From NCBI GenBank assembly GCA_965228735.1, contig OZ245838.1:4320001-4384000 (forward strand): 64,000 bases of DNA, in the 5' to 3' direction. Below, piece after piece: positions 38,032 to 47,537 of this stretch. The translations under genes were made by a program, and so were the position numbers. Source of the stretch: Planctomycetota bacterium (GTDB lineage: Bacteria > Planctomycetota > UBA1135 > UBA2386). The notes under the pieces were generated by a model that saw only the letters and a list, made by a program, of their open reading frames with translations, made no database searches and was not told the DNA's origin. Position 1 is the first letter of the stretch. Each line of letters begins with the position of its first letter.

Positions 38032-38735
38032 TGTTCGACGCACTCAGTAAGGCCATCAACCAGCTGTTCGATCCGCGCATCCTGCGCGTGGTCGGAATCT
38101 CGCTGCTGCTGTCGATCGTGAGCTTCGTGCTCGTGCTGGTCGCGGTCTACTGGGCGCTCGACACGTTCGAGCTGTCGAGCATCGGCTGGCTCGAGGCCAC
38201 GGTCGACTGGCTCGGCATCTTCGCGGCGGTCGTCATCGCGCTGTTCTTGTTCCCGCCGGTCGCGGTCGTCTTCCTCGGCCTCTTCCTCGAGTCGATCGCG
38301 AGAGCCGTTGAAGCCCGCCACTATCCCGAACTCGACAAGGCGCCGGGCGTCTCGTTCACGCAGGGCCTCGTAGCTACGCTGCGGTTCTTCGCGCTGATCG
38401 TCGTCGTCAACATCGCGCTGCTGTTCCTGCTGCTGTTCCCACCCGCGTATCCGATCGGGTATCTGGTCGCGAACGGCTTCCTCATCGCGCGGGAGTATTG
38501 GGACCTCGTCGCACTGCGCCGCATGCAGCCGCGCGAGGCGAAGGCGCTGTTCTCACGTCACACAGCGGAGCTGGTGATGCTCGGGATGGGCACCGCGTTC
38601 TTGCTGACGATCCCGTTCGCCAACTTCATCGCGCCGGTGATTGCGACTGCGGTGATGGTGCACCGGTTTGAGGCGTGGCGGGGGTTGCCGCCGCCGGGGG
38701 CGATTTCGACGGGGCGCGGTGTAACGAGGTCGTGA
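38031..38735 (+). CDS. EI24/CysZ-like membrane protein
   Basis: FLESIARAVEARHYP, NGFLIAREYW.LVALRR, IPFANFIAPV. Confidence 0.85.
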   Translation: MFDALSKAINQLFDPRILRVVGISLLLSIVSFVLVLVAVYWALDTFELSSIGWLEATVDWLGIFAAVVIALFLFPPVAVVFLGLFLESIARAVEARHYPELDKAPGVSFTQGLVATLRFFALIVVVNIALLFLLLFPPAYPIGYLVANGFLIAREYWDLVALRRMQPREAKALFSRHTAELVMLGMGTAFLLTIPFANFIAPVIATAVMVHRFEAWRGLPPPGAISTGRGVTRS

Positions 38736-38806
38736 GCTCGCACCGCGCAATCACTCATCGGTTACTCGAGACACCCCCTCGACGGGACTGTTCCGCGCTC
38801 AGGTCA

Positions 38807-39088
38807 CTTCCGTGGATACAGCAAGTTCTCTTCGCCCACTCGTAAAGCTGCGTCGAACAGATCGCCGGGTTCAAAACGCTCACCAGCGGCGCGTTGCCGC
38901 TCCGCGGCCGTACGGCGCTGAACGCGCTCACGGCGTTCTACATCTGACAGAGCGTCAAACCCGCCGTCCGATCCGCAGAAATCGATGCGAAGCCCGGTCC
39001 TATCCGGTAGATCGACGCCTCGATCTCCGGTCTTGTCGATACCCGTCCTGCTTGGTGTTTGGTGAACCATGGCCATCGCGGCTTGTAA
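38807..39088 (+). pseudogene. Possible degraded gene fragment
   Basis: One frame shows strong GC3 bias but has 3 internal stops (38843, 38945, 39008); no family recognised. Confidence 0.3.
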
Positions 39089-39107
39089 AGAAGTCGGCTT
39101 AGAGGAG

Positions 39108-40565
39108 CTACTGCGCCAAGAGCAATGCTGTCTCGGCGGCAAGCTTGCTTATGTCCGCCGACTTGCTCGTCAAAGCGAGCCGCTCGACGTCCACGGCCAA
39201 CTCTCTTAGCGGACTCCTTTTGAGGGCCGACAGGACGTACCGTTGCGACTCCATGGCGCTCGCATCCGCACTGGAAAGGCACTGCCTGAACAGGCGTATC
39301 GCTTCCCCTCGGTTGTTTGAGTCGACCATTCTGGCTGTATCAACTGCCGAGTAGAACCCCACTTGGAGCGCACTATTGTGCACTGCGGCTGGATCCGCAG
39401 CCACGACTTCAACAAACAGCTTGCGAACCTCGTCAATGGGTTGCGTATTTGCCAACTTCATGAATGCGGTCACCCGCACACCGTCTAACCGCCCATGCTT
39501 CGCAAGCTCCCGGAGAAACGTCACGGCTTGTGGAGACGCTCGCTCGCCGATGACCTCCAGCATCATTCGATGAAACGCATTTGCCTCGGTTGGCTCACTT
39601 GGCCACTCGGTCGCGAGAAGTTCGTCGACCAGATCTAGGCGGGTCAAGTGCGATACCGCATCCGCTTGGCTCGGCGTCCCGTCTACGAGCCGCCTCATCG
39701 CTACCGCCCAAGCGCTCATACTAGAGTTCCAAACTCCGAAACGTTTCACCGTCCCCCGACTAGATTCGTTAAGCTTCGCCAGGAATTGATCTCCAATTCT
39801 CGTTGCACCCGTGGTCACTGCCGCGATCGCGTCCCCTGGATCCGAGAACGAGAACATTGCTTCCATCACTAGTGTGATTCGCGCAATATCCGGCGGCCTC
39901 GCATCGGCCAGAGGAAGGCTCGCTTCGACTATTCCGCCCAGCGCCTGCGAACCCTCTCGCAACAGAAGCTCTCGCAGAAGCGCCCACAGAGCGTCGCCAT
40001 CGAGCCCCGCAATTGCCGCAGCTACGGATGCCTGGCACGAAGCTGCATCGAAACACGGCCACCCTGCAAGTAGGGCTTGGAGAGCGCGGTGGTGCCCAGG
40101 CGGCACGACGGAGCGCACGTATGCATGAACATCTGCGACCAGCGCCGGCCCGGGCTTCTGGTCCTGACGAATCATCGTCGCCACGGGCGCATCAATTGCT
40201 AGATTCGGATCTTCAAGTAGCGCATCTTCCCGAAGTAGCTCCAGCGTGAGTCGGCTGACGGCTTCCAAGCCGAACTGTCCGCTACGAACGCCCTCCGCCA
40301 AGCGCAAGCCTGCCGGACCCGACCGCACGGTGAAGAGCCACTCCTTCAGGAGGTCGCGCAGGACCGGGCTAGCTTTCGGCACCGAGACAACGGACCGGTT
40401 TGGAACCTCCACATCTTCTGCCACACCAACCTCGACGTCGTCACTGTGGCGAGACGCATGGTCCTCGAGCGGACTAACAACGCCCCCTTCGATAAAAAAG
40501 CAAATCACACCGACGCACGCCGTGCCGATGCCCGCCAGCAGGGCCACACGCATTAGCCTTCGCAT
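39108..40565 (-). CDS. Membrane-anchored alpha-helical hypothetical protein (island)
   Basis: ATG 10 nt after the Cys-rich gene stop; N-term TM; HEAT-like C-terminal part; atypical lower-GC codon use. Confidence 0.65.
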   Translation of the reverse strand: MRRLMRVALLAGIGTACVGVICFFIEGGVVSPLEDHASRHSDDVEVGVAEDVEVPNRSVVSVPKASPVLRDLLKEWLFTVRSGPAGLRLAEGVRSGQFGLEAVSRLTLELLREDALLEDPNLAIDAPVATMIRQDQKPGPALVADVHAYVRSVVPPGHHRALQALLAGWPCFDAASCQASVAAAIAGLDGDALWALLRELLLREGSQALGGIVEASLPLADARPPDIARITLVMEAMFSFSDPGDAIAAVTTGATRIGDQFLAKLNESSRGTVKRFGVWNSSMSAWAVAMRRLVDGTPSQADAVSHLTRLDLVDELLATEWPSEPTEANAFHRMMLEVIGERASPQAVTFLRELAKHGRLDGVRVTAFMKLANTQPIDEVRKLFVEVVAADPAAVHNSALQVGFYSAVDTARMVDSNNRGEAIRLFRQCLSSADASAMESQRYVLSALKRSPLRELAVDVERLALTSKSADISKLAAETALLLAQ

Positions 40566-40575
40566 CGCACTCGCG

Positions 40576-41001
40576 CTACTGAGTACAATCAGCGTGTTGG
40601 TTACCGTTGGTGCATGCAAGCGGCGTCGCCTGCGTGAATGCTTGGTCGTTCTGCCATTGCGAAGCAACGCACGCAGCGCCATTGCAGGACCAGGATCGCT
40701 TCTCGCTGAACTTGGTAAACGACTTGCAGCAGGACTCCGGGACCGGTGTACCTGGATTACACTCGAAGATGGCGGGCCACTTGTACTCAGTATACCCACA
40801 CTCGTTGTCGCCGTCGTTATTGCAATCGGTAGTCGGCTGGTCGCTGTAAGTGTAGGCTTTCTCCGTGAGCTTGACCCCGATGTTGCTGCATGGGTCATTC
40901 CCGTGATCTGCAGGGCTCGAATCAAGGAAAAGACTAGCCGAGGCCATTCCAACGATGAGCATCATCGAATAGACGGCGTGGTTGATCGCTGAGGCGGACA
41001 T
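40576..41001 (-). CDS. Small secreted cysteine-rich protein (141 aa, 10 Cys)
   Basis: GAAGGAG RBS; hydrophobic signal; 10 Cys including a CC pair; DCNNDGDNE Dx[DN]xDG-like loop. Confidence 0.75.
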   Translation of the reverse strand: MSASAINHAVYSMMLIVGMASASLFLDSSPADHGNDPCSNIGVKLTEKAYTYSDQPTTDCNNDGDNECGYTEYKWPAIFECNPGTPVPESCCKSFTKFSEKRSWSCNGAACVASQWQNDQAFTQATPLACTNGNQHADCTQ

Positions 41002-41113
41002 GGTTGTGCTCCTTCGTTCTTGTTCGTTCTCGTTCGTTCTCGTGGTTTGAACGCCTGGGCCGCCGACCAATTCCAGCGCCTCCAGGCATGGGTTAGGCGT
41101 TTGAGGTAAGAGA

Positions 41114-41123
41114 GGGGGGGGGG
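41114..41123 (-). repeat. C10 homopolymer tract (G10 on + strand) in the sigma/Cys-peptide intergenic region
   Basis: Minus strand reads TCCTCGGATCGAGGA-CCCCCCCCCC-TCTCTTA. Confidence 0.85.
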
Positions 41124-41146
41124 TCCTCGATCCGAGGAAAATCCGT

Positions 41147-41671
41147 TCAGCGGCCGCCTTCCCGCTGTCCCAACGTCGTAAGTGCGCGCTGAAACGCTCG
41201 GCGCAGGTTCGAGCGATCCATCCCCAACTCCTTCGCCGCGCGATGCTTCGACATGCCGGGCTCGGCCAGCTTCTCGACGACTCGAGCCTGCACTGGTGTC
41301 AGCTTCTTCCGCATGTGGCGGAAACGACTGCGCAGCTTCTCACGACTCCCCGGCACGCTACCCGACTGCTCGTCAACCGCGAGGCCGGCCTCGGCGTAAG
41401 CCAGGGCTCCGGACCCGACGCGCTTCACATGGTTCACCGCGACGCGAAACGCCCACGCGCTGGCATCCGCCGGCTCGTCGTCTTCGAGGATCCTTCGAAT
41501 CCAGATCGAGCGGGTCGCGTCGACTGCGTCTTCCACGAGCTGCCGCTCGGACGAGACAGAACTCGCCCCGCGTCGAGCCGAACGCTCGACATCGCGAAGT
41601 TGCGTCGTTAGTTGGGGGTCTGACTCGTTCAACAGAACGGGCGAGGGCGAAGGTTTTTCCGAGGCGGGCAA
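41147..41671 (-). CDS. Divergent minimal ECF-like sigma factor (start uncertain)
   Basis: Region-2-like VEDAVDA...AWAFRVAVNHVKR; region-4 HTH LTPVQARVV...GMSKHRAAKELGMDRSNLRRAFQRAL. Confidence 0.7.
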   Translation of the reverse strand: MPASEKPSPSPVLLNESDPQLTTQLRDVERSARRGASSVSSERQLVEDAVDATRSIWIRRILEDDEPADASAWAFRVAVNHVKRVGSGALAYAEAGLAVDEQSGSVPGSREKLRSRFRHMRKKLTPVQARVVEKLAEPGMSKHRAAKELGMDRSNLRRAFQRALTTLGQREGGR

Positions 41672-41841
41672 GCATGCCGCGCGGCGACCAAGCGTCTTCC
41701 GAACACCGATCGCGCCACGACTCTCTGATGATTAACGTGCATGCGCGAGGCGATCCGGTCAACCCCCTCGGCTCTCGCCGCCGCGGGCGAGTGCGCTGAC
41801 GACGGGGCGCGAGTATTCCCACTCAGTCGTTCGACGCGCGC

Positions 41842-43473
41842 TCAGCGCCGCCGTTCCGTCAGCGTGCACTCGGCAACCCAAGCATTGTGTTGCCCGGACC
41901 GCACGAGCCGGATCGGCACTTCTTCCCAACCGCGAACGTACACGTCCATAGTCGCCACGAGGTGACGCATCCAGAACGTGCAACCACCGCGGCTGTCACG
42001 CATCGCATCCGCCACGTAGCCGTTGCCGTCTCGGTAGAACAGGAACTGGCCGAAGGGCACTTCGGGCGCCCCGTCGATCTCGACGCGGTAACAGTGCACG
42101 CCTTCGCGCCACTTCATCTCGAAGACCGCATCGTCCGAGGTCGCCAGCTCGAAGGTCGTCTTCTCGAGAGCGGCGCTCCCTTCGACGACCGGACTGACCC
42201 GGTAGCGACCCAACGGCAGCTCGATCCGATCCCCGAGCCTCGCGCGGAGCCTCGACTTCGTCCCAATGCCCAGGACCGTCACTCGAAACCGCAGATCGTC
42301 GATCGGGTAGACGCCTTCCGGTGGCGGCAGCAACGTGACGAACGCCGTCTCGATCACGGGACCTTCGGCCTCGACCCGGATCTCGCGAGCCCCCTCGAAC
42401 TCGCTGAGACGTTCCAGCACCATCCGTTCCTCGCGCTCACCGCCCTGCCGCAACGCCACCTTCGCGATCGCGCTCCGCTCGCCCCAACGCACCGACGTCG
42501 GATCGGGCAAGAACAGCGCGCCTGTGACGTGCTTGCCGTCGCCGATCAGCGCCTCCCGCAGTTCGGCCAGCCGCGTGAGGCTCGCCGGGCGCATCGAATG
42601 CGGTGGCAGGGCGCCGCCAGCGCGCACGCGTTGCGTGACAATCTCGGTTCCGACGAATCGGATCGCACCGACCGCGGGTGTTTGAACGCGGATACGAGCC
42701 GTCCCGCCAACGCCGAGCCCCATGGTCCGGGGCTCGTCCCGCGCAACGAGGTAGTGCGGATGATCGACTTCGAAGTGCCATGCCTCGACGCCCGCGGGCA
42801 CTGCGACGACGCCGCGGCCATCGTCGTCCGATTTGCTCGCATAGATCGCGTTCGCGGAATCGGGGCCCGGCACTGCGCCTCCGGGTGGATACGTGCGGAT
42901 CAGCTTCTGTGACACACAGAGCCGCGCGTTCGCGATCGGCTCGAGGGTCTCGGTGTCGAAGACGAAGAACGCAGCGTTGTCGTACGGCGTGAGCTCGACG
43001 GTATGGCGTTGCCCTCGGTCGGGAGCGTGCAGCTCGACCGTCGCGTAGCCGTCGGCACCAACGAGTACAGTGCCGGTGTCCGCCGGCAGCATCGCAACAT
43101 CGAGGCCCAGCCAGCCGTCCTCGTTCACCGACGCAGCCGCGCGCTCGGCAACCCGGCCCTCCGCAGCAGCGACACCGATCGAAGCGGCGTGGATCGACTC
43201 CCCGGATGGATCGACTGCCATGACCCATAGTCGCCCATCGGGAACCCACCGGGGCTTCGCCCGCTCGACGGTCACGGGGTCGGCTTCGGTCGCCACGAGG
43301 ACGGAGCTGTCAGGGGCGGCCGACTTGGCAGTCGAGCGATCGCGGGCGAGGTCGCGGCGTGTCTCGCCCACGGCGTGGGGAGCCTTCTCGGGGTCGGTGA
43401 GGAGCAGCAGGAAAGCGGCGCAGCAGACGACCAGGATCGCGCTCAGAACGAGGTTCTTTCGTTGCCTCGACAT
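41842..43473 (-). CDS. Membrane-anchored beta-rich protein (carboxypeptidase-regulatory-like repeats)
   Basis: GGAG RBS; N-term TM; AVDPSGESI, VFDTETLEPIANA and SDDDGRG motifs. Confidence 0.65.
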   Translation of the reverse strand: MSRQRKNLVLSAILVVCCAAFLLLLTDPEKAPHAVGETRRDLARDRSTAKSAAPDSSVLVATEADPVTVERAKPRWVPDGRLWVMAVDPSGESIHAASIGVAAAEGRVAERAAASVNEDGWLGLDVAMLPADTGTVLVGADGYATVELHAPDRGQRHTVELTPYDNAAFFVFDTETLEPIANARLCVSQKLIRTYPPGGAVPGPDSANAIYASKSDDDGRGVVAVPAGVEAWHFEVDHPHYLVARDEPRTMGLGVGGTARIRVQTPAVGAIRFVGTEIVTQRVRAGGALPPHSMRPASLTRLAELREALIGDGKHVTGALFLPDPTSVRWGERSAIAKVALRQGGEREERMVLERLSEFEGAREIRVEAEGPVIETAFVTLLPPPEGVYPIDDLRFRVTVLGIGTKSRLRARLGDRIELPLGRYRVSPVVEGSAALEKTTFELATSDDAVFEMKWREGVHCYRVEIDGAPEVPFGQFLFYRDGNGYVADAMRDSRGGCTFWMRHLVATMDVYVRGWEEVPIRLVRSGQHNAWVAECTLTERRR

Positions 43474-43491
43474 TGGACTGGTCTCCAACTC

Positions 43492-44763
43492 CTACTGAAT
43501 GGTCAGCAACGCCGTATTGCTCGCATAGAGCGCTCCAGCACCAGCGGTATCCAAAGTGACCGACTGGGCCGCCAATCGCACACCGCTCAAACCCGGGTTG
43601 TTCGGAACCGGGATGTCGAGCACCGCCTCGCCGTTGGCGTTGTTGTGGGTCACCCACACGCTGTTCCACGCCCTGGCAGCGTCGATCCCGACCAATCCCT
43701 GAAGGGGGGCGAGCGCGGCACCACTCGCCAAGAACTGCGGGCTGGCCACGCAGAGGGATCGCCGCGGCGTTGCCGACGTGATCGGTGGCGCGAACATCCG
43801 CACCTGCATCGTGCCCCCGACCGGGGCGCTGCCGCCCGTCGTCCAGTACGAATCCACCGCCCGCAGCCTGGTGAGCGCGCTCGGATTGTTTTGATCCCAT
43901 TCGCTGAAGAACACCCGTCCTCCGGCGACTCCAGACATGTCGGTCTGAGTCACGGTGTCCGACACCCGAATCGATGGCGTCAACGGATCGAGGTCAAGAG
44001 CGATGTAGCGATCTGTTTCCGACCCAGCGCCGAGGTAGCCGAGGACGCTGTGAAAGACGCCGAGAATCTCGCCGCTCGCGTCTTCGATGGGAACCGGGTT
44101 CGTCGCCCGAACGGGAGCCGGCATGTCAACGATGACAGTCGGCGGGCCCAACGCAGTCGTGATTGTCGCGTCGAACGGGACCAGCGCGATGTCCCAGCTT
44201 GGCTGGATGTAGACCAGATGAAGTTGCCCGTTCCGATCCGTAAGCGCTGACCGCCAGGTCTTGTGCCCCCCGCAGCATGGCAAGCCCCAGACCGATCCGG
44301 CGACCTGCCACGGCGAACTCAACGTGGGCCGCGTCGCGAACTGCGGCGGCGAATACTGCAAGTACAGCGGGCGTTCGAAGACAGCCATGAGACCACTGTG
44401 GTGCAGCTTCATGAAACCCTCGGGTCCCGTCGTGTTCAGCGCCGCCGCATCGCTGTTGGCAGTGAACGTGTCGGTCGCGATGTCGTAGCGCCCACAGAGC
44501 AGATCCCAACTGCCGGCGCCCCCGGCCCCCGCCCCCAAACCCTGCACCATGATCGCGCAGTAAAACTCCGATTCGGGGCTGCCGGACAAGTGCACCATGT
44601 GCATCGCTCCCACTGCCGCGACCCCGAGCGTTGTCGCGTTCAACCCGAGCGGGGAACTCGGCGCTGCGGGCTCGAACGGGCCGACGGTGCCCTGTGAGCG
44701 CACGTTCAGCGCCAGGCTGAGCCCGACGGTGATTACGACAACGGCTGTGGGCCTCGTGTTCAT
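43492..44763 (-). CDS. Secreted beta-rich protein with a putative C-terminal sorting-like domain
   Basis: Signal peptide ending SQ; C-term GEAVLDIPVPNNPGLSGVRLAAQ...SNTALLTIQ. Confidence 0.7.
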   Translation of the reverse strand: MNTRPTAVVVITVGLSLALNVRSQGTVGPFEPAAPSSPLGLNATTLGVAAVGAMHMVHLSGSPESEFYCAIMVQGLGAGAGGAGSWDLLCGRYDIATDTFTANSDAAALNTTGPEGFMKLHHSGLMAVFERPLYLQYSPPQFATRPTLSSPWQVAGSVWGLPCCGGHKTWRSALTDRNGQLHLVYIQPSWDIALVPFDATITTALGPPTVIVDMPAPVRATNPVPIEDASGEILGVFHSVLGYLGAGSETDRYIALDLDPLTPSIRVSDTVTQTDMSGVAGGRVFFSEWDQNNPSALTRLRAVDSYWTTGGSAPVGGTMQVRMFAPPITSATPRRSLCVASPQFLASGAALAPLQGLVGIDAARAWNSVWVTHNNANGEAVLDIPVPNNPGLSGVRLAAQSVTLDTAGAGALYASNTALLTIQ

Positions 44764-44929
44764 GACGACTCGCAGGAAGCGATGCTCCCCCTCGATCCCA
44801 TGGTGAAGCGCGGGAACGGGTCCGGTCAAGCCCACGCGGTCGGCAGCAACCGCGCAGGAGAGCATTCCCACCGCAAACCGCAGCGGCACGCCAGCTGCCC
44901 CACCGCCAAGGGTATGATCGCCCGCCGCC

Positions 44930-46822
44930 ATGCGAACCGCCCTCCCACTCGCAGCGGCACTTGCCGCCACCGTTCTGCTGCCGGCGCAGCGGGACGTTCA
45001 TCCCGATGAGCTGAAGCTCAAGCCCGACATCGACAAGGCGATCGCCAAGGGGGTCAAGCACCTCATCGATACGCAGTATCGCGACGGCACGTGGGGGCAG
45101 TGGGGGCACTATCGCGGTGGCAAGACGGCGCTCGTCACCTATGCGTTGCTGAAGAGTGGGGTCGATGTCGACCATCCCGCGGTGCAGCGCGCGTTCTTGT
45201 ATCTCGACGACGTGATCCCGGCCGAGACCTACACGCTCGGCTGCATGATACTGTGTTACGCCGCCGCCGGGCGCGTGACGCTCGGCGAACGGCTCGAGGA
45301 GTGGACGGAGCTGCTGCTCGACTGGCAGCGCACGGGCGACTGGGCGTATCCGGGCGGCAACGCGGATCTGTCCAACACGCAGTACGCCGCGCTCGGCATG
45401 TGGGTCGCGCAGAAACACGGCATCGAGGTGCCGCGCAAGGCGTGGACCGACCTCGCGGCGGCGACGTTGCGTTACGCGGAGAAGGCGACCAGGGTCGAGG
45501 TCGAGACGAGCGGCAAGGGCACGGTGCGGAACGGCGGCATGGTCGAGATCGCGGGTTTCGGTTACCGGAAAGGGCAGAAGGCCACCGGCTCGATGACGAC
45601 GGCTGGAATCTCGACGTTGGCGATCTGCAAGATCGGGCTCGGCAGTCGCGCGGGCAAGCTGCGACGCGAGGCCGATCGGGCGATCGACGCCGGCATCGAG
45701 TGGCTGGGGCACCACTTCTCGGTCGAGAAGAACCCCAACAAGGGCGACTGGCACTACTACTACCTCTACGGCATGGAGCGCACGGGTTCGCTCACGCGGC
45801 GCGAGCAGTTCGGCAGTCACTGGTGGTACATCGAAGGCGCGCGCGAGCTGCTGAAGAAGCAGAACAAGGACCAGGGGCACTGGGGTGGCGGCGCGCAGAA
45901 GAAGGCGGTGCGGGCCGCGTTCGCCCTGTTGTTCTTGCGGCGGGCGACGGCGCAGGAGGCCGCGACGACCGGGGAGGGTCAGGCGACGGACGTCGTGAGC
46001 CACATCTTCGAGGGTGGCTCGGAAAAGGATGATGTCACGGTCGGGGGCGCGGGCCAGCAACCGCTCGCGGTCTGGGTGCCGGGCTTCGGCAAGGAGCTGC
46101 AGAAGCGGCACGAGAAGTTCGGGCTGCGCGTCGTCAAGGTCGAGTACTACGAAGGTGACGACGTCCTCGGCCAGGTCGCGGGCGATCCGACGAAGGCGTG
46201 GCAGAGCGACGCGTATCTCTACCGCGTGCCAGCGCTGGCGCGCGGGGAACATGAGATCCACGCCCGCGTCGAGCTGCTCGCGCCCGACGCGATGCCCGGC
46301 GAGGACGACGTCGAGGTCGAGACCGAGGAGGTGCGATCACCGCCGATGAAGGTCGTGATCCGCGACGTGTTCGCGCCGTGGATGGCGCAGGCCGCGCGCG
46401 CCGCGAAGAGCAACCTCGTCGCCCTCGCCGAGCCGGTCGCGGAGGCCAGCAGCACGGGCAAGACCGCGAAGCACGCGTGTGACGGCAAGGAGAACTCGCA
46501 CTGGGTGTGCAGCAAGGACGACAAGGCCCCGCGCATCTCCGTTCGCCTCGGCGGCTCGGTTCGCGCGAGTCAGCTGCTGCTGAGCCAGGCCGGCTCGTGC
46601 GCGACGGATATCGGCATCTACGACCGGATCACGGCGATCGAGGTCGCGATCAACCGCGGCACGCCGATCCGCGTCGAGATGGATCCGGACCAGCTCGCGG
46701 TCACGTCGATCCCGTTCGAGAAGAAGCGCCGCGTGCGTCAGATCGAGATCCGCATTCTCGACCGCGTGCCAGGCAAACGCGCGGGTCAGGCAGGGTTCAC
46801 CGAGATCGCGCTGATCGAGTGA
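44930..46822 (+). CDS. Secreted prenyltransferase/squalene-cyclase-repeat protein with C-terminal discoidin-like domain
   Basis: QW-like repeats (QYRDGTW, QRTGDWAY); DLSNTQYAALG; YYYLYGMER; ACDGKENSHW...GFTEIAL. Confidence 0.75.
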   Translation: MRTALPLAAALAATVLLPAQRDVHPDELKLKPDIDKAIAKGVKHLIDTQYRDGTWGQWGHYRGGKTALVTYALLKSGVDVDHPAVQRAFLYLDDVIPAETYTLGCMILCYAAAGRVTLGERLEEWTELLLDWQRTGDWAYPGGNADLSNTQYAALGMWVAQKHGIEVPRKAWTDLAAATLRYAEKATRVEVETSGKGTVRNGGMVEIAGFGYRKGQKATGSMTTAGISTLAICKIGLGSRAGKLRREADRAIDAGIEWLGHHFSVEKNPNKGDWHYYYLYGMERTGSLTRREQFGSHWWYIEGARELLKKQNKDQGHWGGGAQKKAVRAAFALLFLRRATAQEAATTGEGQATDVVSHIFEGGSEKDDVTVGGAGQQPLAVWVPGFGKELQKRHEKFGLRVVKVEYYEGDDVLGQVAGDPTKAWQSDAYLYRVPALARGEHEIHARVELLAPDAMPGEDDVEVETEEVRSPPMKVVIRDVFAPWMAQAARAAKSNLVALAEPVAEASSTGKTAKHACDGKENSHWVCSKDDKAPRISVRLGGSVRASQLLLSQAGSCATDIGIYDRITAIEVAINRGTPIRVEMDPDQLAVTSIPFEKKRRVRQIEIRILDRVPGKRAGQAGFTEIALIE

Positions 46823-46837
46823 CGCTACGGCGCCTTG

Positions 46838-46889
46838 CGTACGGTACACGGTTCACGCCGGCGTGCCGGCGTGAACCAGGTTCCGTACG
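46838..46889. repeat. REP/REPIN-like palindromic element, copy 2
   Basis: CGTACGGTACACGGTTCACGCCGGC-GT-GCCGGCGTGAACCAGGTTCCGTACG; between convergent genes. Confidence 0.85.
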
Positions 46890-46895
46890 GCGTGG

Positions 46896-47537
46896 TTACT
46901 TCGGGGTGACTCGGAGGTTGCGGAACTCGCCGGTGTCGTCGAAGGAGCCGACGCCGATGCGGCCCTTGCCGAGCGGGGCCTTGGCGGTGATGACGCGTTC
47001 GCCGTCGAAGAAGACTTCGACGTGTTCACCGCGGCGCGTGAGCTTGAGACTGTGCCAGGTGTCGCCCCAATCGACGCCCTCGGTGCGCTCGGTCGTCACC
47101 GGGCGCCGCGGCGCGCCGTCGACGAGCATCACGTGGTGTGCGTTGGGGTCCGCCTTGGCCGCGAGGTGGGCGTAGAGGTAGTGCGCCGGGTCGCGGTAGC
47201 CGAAGATCAGGCAAAGGTCGAGGTGGCCGTAGTACTCCTTGGTCGACTTCGCCTCGACCTCGAGGTCGAAGTCCTGCAGCTCGATGCCCTGCGCCAGCGC
47301 GAGGGAGTGTGGCGAGCGATGCGGCGGCTGGTAGTCGGCGCGCTTCTCGAGAACGAGCAGCGGGGTGCCGGTGCCGGCCTCCTTGCACCACTCCCACGCG
47401 TCGTCGTCGCTGTAGTCCCAGCCCGACGCTTCGTCGAACGTCGTCGCCCCGCCGAGCCCCGCGCAGGCGCTCACGCCGACGACGACCGGAAGCGCTGCCA
47501 GCGCGACTGCCTTGATCCACCTGTTCGAGTTCGTCAT
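46896..47537 (-). CDS. Lipoprotein with concanavalin-A/DUF1080-like fold
   Basis: Lipobox VSAC; WHSLKLTR, VEVFFDG, GRIGVGSFDDTGEFRNL. Confidence 0.65.
   Translation of the reverse strand: MTNSNRWIKAVALAALPVVVGVSACAGLGGATTFDEASGWDYSDDDAWEWCKEAGTGTPLLVLEKRADYQPPHRSPHSLALAQGIELQDFDLEVEAKSTKEYYGHLDLCLIFGYRDPAHYLYAHLAAKADPNAHHVMLVDGAPRRPVTTERTEGVDWGDTWHSLKLTRRGEHVEVFFDGERVITAKAPLGKGRIGVGSFDDTGEFRNLRVTPK

Follow-up and report, generated by a model that had tools for sequence, protein, structure and literature searches.

A family-restricted sigma-like gene, a poly-C motif and exchangeable pairs of cysteine-rich and partner proteins in Planctomycetota

A 64,000-nucleotide stretch of a Planctomycetota genome (contig OZ245838.1, positions 4,320,001 to 4,384,000; the whole stretch is called the window below) carries, on its minus strand, genes for a divergent sigma factor, a protein rich in cysteine and predicted to be secreted, and a predicted helical protein with a single transmembrane (TM) segment. 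Do these three genes belong to a recurrent unit, and what may such a unit do? A first-pass annotation had proposed a cassette in which a dedicated sigma drives a disulfide-rich effector and its partner. All three co-oriented open reading frames (ORFs) were found where it had placed them (Table 1); its layout held for the genes and overlooked a conserved poly-C motif between the sigma gene and the cargo. In related genomes, sigma, C tract and cargo are found together much more often than in controls; the cargo varies between loci, each Cys-rich type with its own type of partner.

Sigma clade, poly-C motif and cargo

Recurrence was judged by one fixed rule, a secreted Cys-rich ORF at most 1.5 kb downstream of the sigma gene. 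Among the first 30 loci, the window included, 14 satisfied the rule. With longer loci, 33 sigma matches left 30 that were testable; the rule was satisfied at 17 of these, and at 12 of the 14 with scores of at least 150 bits. The same rule was satisfied by none of 149 other extracytoplasmic function (ECF) sigmas of the window's own 7.19-Mb genome (G000; 149 of 152 matches used) and by 3 of 1500 random windows. As the genomes are kin, the locus counts are not independent tests. The expectation of the first-pass annotation, that sigma homologues recurrently precede variable Cys-rich secreted ORFs and TM partners, is thereby borne out at 17 of the 30 testable loci. Many of the 152 G000 matches to the ECF sigma model lie in open frames of 800-1200 aa, with long extensions.

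The sigma-like protein had been described as a divergent sigma of about 170 aa with regions 2 and 4 and no anti-sigma. This was confirmed, though the family matches are all below cut-off (Pfam Sigma70_r2 E 0.03, residues 30-83; r4_2 E 0.016, residues 122-167; TIGR02989 E 7e-8). Regions 2 and 4 follow each other in order across a short linker, with no region 3, which is the layout of ECF sigmas, and an alignment of the clade profile with the solved ECF SigL spans it from end to end (positions 12-152, E 1.1e-7). The protein terminates right behind region 4 and has no fused extension. No cognate anti-sigma is encoded at +1, where the gene is that of a secreted protein or of a partner with a very short N-terminus. 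In the clade alignment (20-sequence profile), regions 2.2-2.4 and 4.2 are conserved and the linker is variable. The lengths of the homologues favour a start at TTG 41632 (161 aa) for the window sigma, and the database call of this gene, P0006, is a 129-aa short form.

Word-index searches gave no homologue of the sigma, of the Cys-rich protein (P0002) or of the partner (P0003); their homologues came only from HMMER on representatives and from genome searches. A two-sequence sigma profile found matches in 27 of 301 genomes of the order and in 22 of 90 of the family, and the 20-sequence profile at E 1e-15 in 19 of 74 family genomes versus 0 of 226 from the other families of the class. A sample of the phylum gave matches in 5 of 301 genomes, with one weak match outside the family; three weak matches in this sample are without Cys-rich cargo. 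In a tree with 82 other ECF cores of G000, all 28 clade sequences grouped together with one G000 ECF (Shimodaira-Hasegawa-like approximate likelihood ratio, SH-aLRT, 99.8), while 27 clade sequences alone received an SH-aLRT of 76. Judged by sequence, the window sigma is a member of a family-restricted, anti-sigma-less ECF-like clade. A sister group of sigmas (L043, L044, L116, L117) adjoins XRE-like helix-turn-helix genes and secreted glycoside-hydrolase-like genes (labels given by eye), without Cys-rich cargo, and a G000 gene at C1 3522805-3523398 (45 bits) may belong to it.

The stop codon of the sigma gene is immediately followed by an element rich in purines, then by the C tract and then by TCT. 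The C10 of the window is one of just five C or G runs of at least 10 in the whole genome. A tract is present at 17 of the 30 clade loci, as compared with 15 of 5000 random 80-mers, and the cargo rule is satisfied by 13 of the 17 loci with a tract versus 4 of the 13 without one; of the remaining four tract loci, three hold frameshifted or Cys-poorer versions of the cargo, as seen by eye. Taking the longest run within 70 nt, C8-C15 occurs at 12 of the 33 sigma matches, to which C11 in L007 is added. The full motif of L007 is parted from the sigma stop by an insertion that carries an 8-nt duplication, and remains beside the cargo. Orientation, position and the TCT end of the motif are constant across sigmas that are just 25-50% identical. 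The tract thus has the homopolymer length (about 8 or more) of a contingency locus, at a putative promoter position. By analogy to the promoter of Neisseria opc, we infer that the motif is a target promoter of the ECF sigma with a slippage-prone spacer. Since nine G000 matches to C7 followed by TC(T/A) revealed no further copy of the motif ahead of a cargo pair, no trans regulon is seen.

Inspection by eye found frameshifted Cys-rich genes in L084 and L096, a 9-Cys gene in L093 and a divergent pair in L098. In L082 (genome G208) sigma and Cys-rich gene stand in one frame with full read-through, and in L102 (G192) the two are fused in one frame with the loss of region 4. Genome G154 holds, in L089 and L099, arrays of small paralogous genes starting with MIDAQ or MIDAE beside broken clade sigmas and long Cys-rich ORFs; in L089 and L097, two loci of this genome, the C tract itself is the insertion site of the same insertion sequence (IS) end.

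Rearrangements of this kind bear on a different explanation, which treats the sigma as a passenger or landing site and the tract as a hot spot of recombination or insertion (or a pause or Rho-loading sequence) at which mobile pairs would gather, using read-through or housekeeping promoters. IS elements at or just past the tract in L088, L089, L090 and L097, the duplication in L007, the deletions that fuse sigma and cargo in L082 and L102, and the TTGAC-type sequences that sigma-less cassettes have upstream of their own are in agreement with this. The constancy of the motif among divergent sigmas is not, nor is the conservation of the sigma regions 2.2-2.4 and 4.2 next to a variable linker, and the cargo nearly always belongs to one functional class. 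We consider a passenger role of the sigma unlikely.

Exchange of the cargo pair

To describe the cargo, 31 cassettes were collected by hand. Their small proteins fall into 21 unrelated groups. Among the 465 possible pairs of cassettes, both genes are similar in 12, only the small protein in 6, only the partner in 3, and neither in 444. A small protein of the window type is followed by a partner of the window type at 5 of 5 loci (four by tblastn, one by eye at a contig end); among these, a clade sigma lies ahead in L007, on a plasmid-like island with ParA/RepA, and L008 and L009 do not extend far enough upstream to tell. Eight short partners come out as a single family in a leave-one-out comparison (8 of 8 above 200 shuffles); the small proteins that go with them all have CxxC at their end. 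Conversely, two sigmas of G143 that are 94% identical carry unrelated cargo, as do the 65%-identical sigmas of G009 and G188. The order of the two genes is reversed in 5 of the 31 cassettes. Two distant homologues of the window's partner were also found, one behind a different 10-Cys protein and one with no such gene upstream. Hence the cargo can be swapped, each type of Cys-rich protein remaining with its type of partner. The self-contained module of the first-pass annotation is only partly borne out: the stable unit is the protein pair, which also occurs without the sigma. Among the sigma-less cassettes of G000, an IS interrupts the first, one contains two Cys-rich paralogues in tandem, and one runs on into more secreted genes and a gene resembling MauE (labelled by eye).

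The small protein of the window, as first described (141 aa, secreted, 10 Cys, strong ribosome-binding site), has a predicted signal peptide, whose cleavage is read from hydropathy only, and an acidic mature part (net charge -8). Five homologues were found among 1.84 billion representatives. In 11 sequences of its family, 7 Cys are invariant and 2 nearly so. The predicted structure is all-beta with long strands, at a mean pLDDT of 83 and mostly above 90 over residues 41-130. Foldseek gave no match at E 0.001 and the best VIA Z of 4.7 lies within background, by which a new fold is not proven. No Pfam or NCBIfam family matches the Cys-rich proteins. Across the cassettes the small proteins are acidic and beta-rich, with 130-230 aa and 10-17 Cys; the mature part is net negative in 30 of 31, and the Cys count is even in 22 of the 28 complete ones. 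As CxxCH occurs in 0 of 31, heme binding was rejected. P0011, a plant repeat protein, was dropped as a match of Cys spacing. In the public record P0013 (608 aa), the small protein (residues 1-127) and the partner form one fused chain; such a joint appeared in none of 8 sequencing runs, and P0013 is an assembly artefact or a rare deletion.

These properties would also suit a redox or metal-handling subunit of the periplasm that is matured by a partner of its own, such as the small subunit of methylamine dehydrogenase with MauD/MauE. Size, acidity, strand content and number of Cys would fit, and a Pfam scan of 51 proteins found MauE at three loci, besides CarboxypepD_reg in four partners. Against it stand the 21 unrelated groups in 31 cassettes; the window's family shows no invariant catalytic residue besides Cys and one Pro, and no match to MauA or to any solved fold was found, which makes this explanation very unlikely.

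For the partner, the first-pass description as a 485-aa helical protein with a single TM segment agrees with the prediction: an N-terminal hydrophobic helix, a linker of low confidence and a HEAT/ARM-like helical solenoid (residues ~65-485) that is predicted to face outward. The distinction between an anchor and a cleaved signal is drawn from hydropathy only. Structure searches returned generic ARM/HEAT solenoids only (TM-score ~0.3), with leads from the Atlas below 0.9. A strong hydrophobic segment near the N-terminus is present in 24 of the 31 partners, which measure 230-690 aa and are often beta-sandwich repeat proteins. An origin of the partners as extensions that split off from fused ECFs found no support, the partner profile giving 3 weak matches in G000.

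In the window's partner the hydrophobic segment begins after only about 6 residues, and in most partners it lies within the first 25. For this reason a classical receptor, as the first-pass annotation had considered, is unlikely, and so is an anti-sigma role. The same feature bears on a pherotype-like ligand and receptor, in which a diffusible small protein would bind the partner and act on the sigma in turn, perhaps through proteolysis or an unlinked transducer. Here the co-variation of cognate ligand and partner families would find an explanation, and some sigma-less cassettes (G000 3005 kb and 4933 kb) adjoin ECF sigmas with long membrane-bound extensions. Such an N-terminus leaves no room for an anti-sigma or output domain, and the loci contain no conserved kinase or protease. 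A signalling pair of this kind therefore appears improbable.

Tight pairs of co-travelling genes also suggest a polymorphic antibacterial effector with its immunity protein: the released disulfide-rich protein would harm related cells, and the anchored partner would protect the periplasm of the producer, with sigma and tract controlling production. The extreme diversity and frequent decay of the pairs are consistent with such a function, as is their presence on plasmid-like or IS-rich islands (ParA/RepA in L007; G000 555 kb and 5058 kb). On the other hand, partners of 230-690 aa, often with beta-sandwich repeats, are large for immunity proteins, the small proteins are acidic rather than cationic, and gene order is not fixed. 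No dedicated exporter or toxin fold was found, and a single switch ahead of both genes would shut off immunity together with the effector. We regard this function as possible, if on balance rather doubtful.

A reading of the locus and its genomic setting

The reading that we prefer, with a probability of roughly 40%, is that of a polymorphic recognition pair of the cell envelope, driven by the sigma and likely switched by the tract, in which the small protein likely binds its own anchored partner and is held, folded or displayed by it. A recognition pair was chosen because the partners have no cytoplasmic output domain and are large, MauE occasionally accompanies them, and one switch lies before both genes. 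The sigma, with no anti-sigma alongside, would be controlled through its own synthesis from a housekeeping-type promoter. The pattern TTGAC-17-nAnnnT, picked after viewing the sequences, lies upstream of 11 of 27 clade sigmas versus 11 of 417 gene-upstream controls; a stricter scan of 38600-42000 found no sigma-70 promoter and no intrinsic terminator. The sigma would then read a promoter overlapping its own 3' end, with the purine-rich element resembling a -35 box, the C tract as spacer and TCT resembling a -10 box, and slippage in the tract would switch or tune the cargo. The small protein is predicted to be exported and disulfide-bonded; MauE-type oxidases accompany it in some cassettes. The partner would be anchored with its large domain outside the cytoplasm, where it may hold, fold or display its cognate small protein, and appears to lack a cytoplasmic domain for signalling. 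Swapping may be driven by diversifying pressure on the exposed product from neighbours, phage, predators or a host.

Several findings weigh against this reading. Of the 30 clade sigmas, 13 fail the cargo rule, and nine loci are by rule without both cargo and tract (two of them have an IS at the position of the tract and one is a pseudogene). The sigma stays under every curated ECF cut-off, reaching 20.3 bits with TIGR02937 where 42.9 are needed; its homologue P0026, with 28.6 bits, is likewise below. Nine of the 12 doubly similar pairs lie within the window's own family, and kin are not independent. The pair occurs without a clade sigma in L005, L006 and six other cassettes of G000. The -35-like part of the motif is loosely conserved and atypical in this window, and its distance to TCT varies between ~12 and 22 nt, mostly 14-16. 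No length variant of C10 was seen in contigs of 5 runs spanning the tract, and rare variants are lost from contigs. Finally, an inner-membrane anchor would put the pair in the periplasm and not on the surface.

The foreign character that the first-pass annotation had read from low GC and atypical codon use was borne out. The GC content of the cassette is 0.605 as compared with 0.694 for the genome, and is equally low in 14 of 2805 tiles of equal size; GC at third codon positions (GC3) is 0.65-0.75 and the codon adaptation index (CAI) 0.31-0.44, versus 0.89-0.95 and 0.65-0.80 in five flanking genes. Two congeneric genomes have both flanks in order, with ~1.1 kb of other DNA in place of the window's ~8.2 kb (38.7-46.9 kb); no direct repeats were found at the island ends. 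The proposal of a horizontally acquired module therefore stands in its foreign origin and not in its extent of three genes, the foreign stretch being larger.

Three further genes lie in this stretch. The product of 41842-43488 (minus), directly upstream of the sigma gene, is a single-TM protein of 543-548 aa (GC3 0.80). In a comparison with the 31 partners it is weakly similar to the beta-sandwich one of L080 (E 1e-5), and by sequence it may be the leftover partner of another cassette. Next to it, 43492-44763 (minus) encodes a secreted protein without a Pfam or NCBIfam match; two genomic paralogues are 38-40% identical to it, and many secreted proteins of the lineage share its C-terminal segment. 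At 44930-46822 (plus), a secreted protein of 630 aa has weak squalene-hopene-cyclase-like and F5/8 type C matches; its gene shows native codon use, yet is missing at this place in both congeners too.

Table 1. Features of the locus, in window positions unless another contig is named
Feature	Position	Strand	Remarks
Sigma-like gene, minimal ECF type	41147-41671	minus	174 aa if TTG 41671 is the start
Cys-rich gene (P0002)	40576-41001	minus	141 aa with 10 Cys; begins with a hydrophobic stretch
Ribosome-binding site AAGGAG of the Cys-rich gene	41009-41014	minus	7 nt before ATG
Partner gene (P0003)	39108-40565	minus	485 aa; start 10 nt past the Cys-rich stop
Conserved cis motif: purine-rich element, C10 tract (41114-41123), TCT	41109-41133	minus	candidate target promoter of the sigma
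Weak candidate promoter of housekeeping type (TTGAC, 17 nt, nAnnnT)	41734-41762	minus	upstream of the sigma gene
Stretch missing at the syntenic place in two congeners	38700-46900, ends approximate		triad and three further genes
Sigma-less cassettes	G000:C1 270901-273719, 555036-556486, 3005376-3010796, 3202496-3204203, 4933427-4934955, 5058218-5059600		

Comparison with known systems

In eukaryotes, large disulfide-rich proteins that are secreted and have matched binders are well known; in bacteria they are poorly charted. Several such pairs exist per genome here, at least seven in G000, and no family library names them. The sigma clade and its motif provide a handle for collecting the pairs and a testable combination of orphan ECF and promoter without an anti-sigma, as well as what may be phase variation in a Planctomycetota lineage from the environment; the small proteins are a source of compact disulfide scaffolds with putative natural binding partners. 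It is conceivable, if on balance doubtful, that the loci represent a new identity system, in which a constant platform of sigma and slippage promoter carries swapped lock-and-key pairs, each of a disulfide-rich ligand with the anchored binder belonging to it, as switchable recognition tags of each Planctomycetota lineage. If so, the tags would be drawn from at least 20 unrelated disulfide-rich sequence groups, several of them possibly with new folds.

The first-pass annotation had recognised no named system with this layout, in agreement with our searches: beyond the CarboxypepD_reg and MauE matches no Pfam or NCBIfam family covers the cargo, and none of 8 proteins matched the PADLOC models of anti-phage defence. 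No description of a system of sigma, poly-C and Cys-rich pair was found in the literature within reach, which excluded subscription papers on ECFs of Planctomycetes.

Among ECF sigmas, the closest resemblance is to two groups of the Casas-Pastor classification that lack an anti-sigma, ECF54 of Actinobacteria and ECF58 of Planctomycetaceae (PMC7826278). Both are minimal ECFs, and the +1 gene of ECF54 encodes a protein with a carboxypeptidase-regulatory-like domain, which some partners here contain. However, the neighbours of the actinobacterial ECF54 are subtilase and CHAT genes, ECF58 belongs to another family and has a DUF3470/4Fe-4S neighbour, and the available part of the group descriptions mentions neither variable Cys-rich secreted cargo nor a poly-C motif (PMC7826278); it is by these descriptions that the window's clade is set apart.

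The tract finds its counterpart in Neisseria opc, where, according to the accessible part of the report, a poly-C tract of 11-12 C in the promoter sets the expression of a surface adhesin by phase variation (PMC3447861). The tract here is of similar length, in a putative promoter. In opc it serves a housekeeping promoter and a single outer-membrane protein, whereas here it follows a dedicated sigma and precedes swappable two-gene cargo (PMC3447861).

For the pair, three comparisons may be drawn. Polymorphic toxin-immunity pairs and class II microcins are likewise adjacent, cognate and highly variable pairs on mobile islands, and the co-variation typical of them is found here; they differ in that neither toxin domain, exporter nor delivery scaffold was found in our loci, where partners are large and small proteins acidic. 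The MauA/MauD/MauE module shares a small disulfide-rich periplasmic protein and, with some cassettes, a private membrane oxidase, but our proteins have no similarity to MauA and no large subunit, and MauE is absent from the window and most loci. As an analogy without homology, plant SCR/SRK and Bacillus ComX/ComP also inherit a polymorphic small ligand with a matched partner; the partner here has neither a kinase nor another output domain. Taken together, the system would work like an operon of an anti-sigma-less ECF combined with a contingency promoter and a polymorphic cognate pair.

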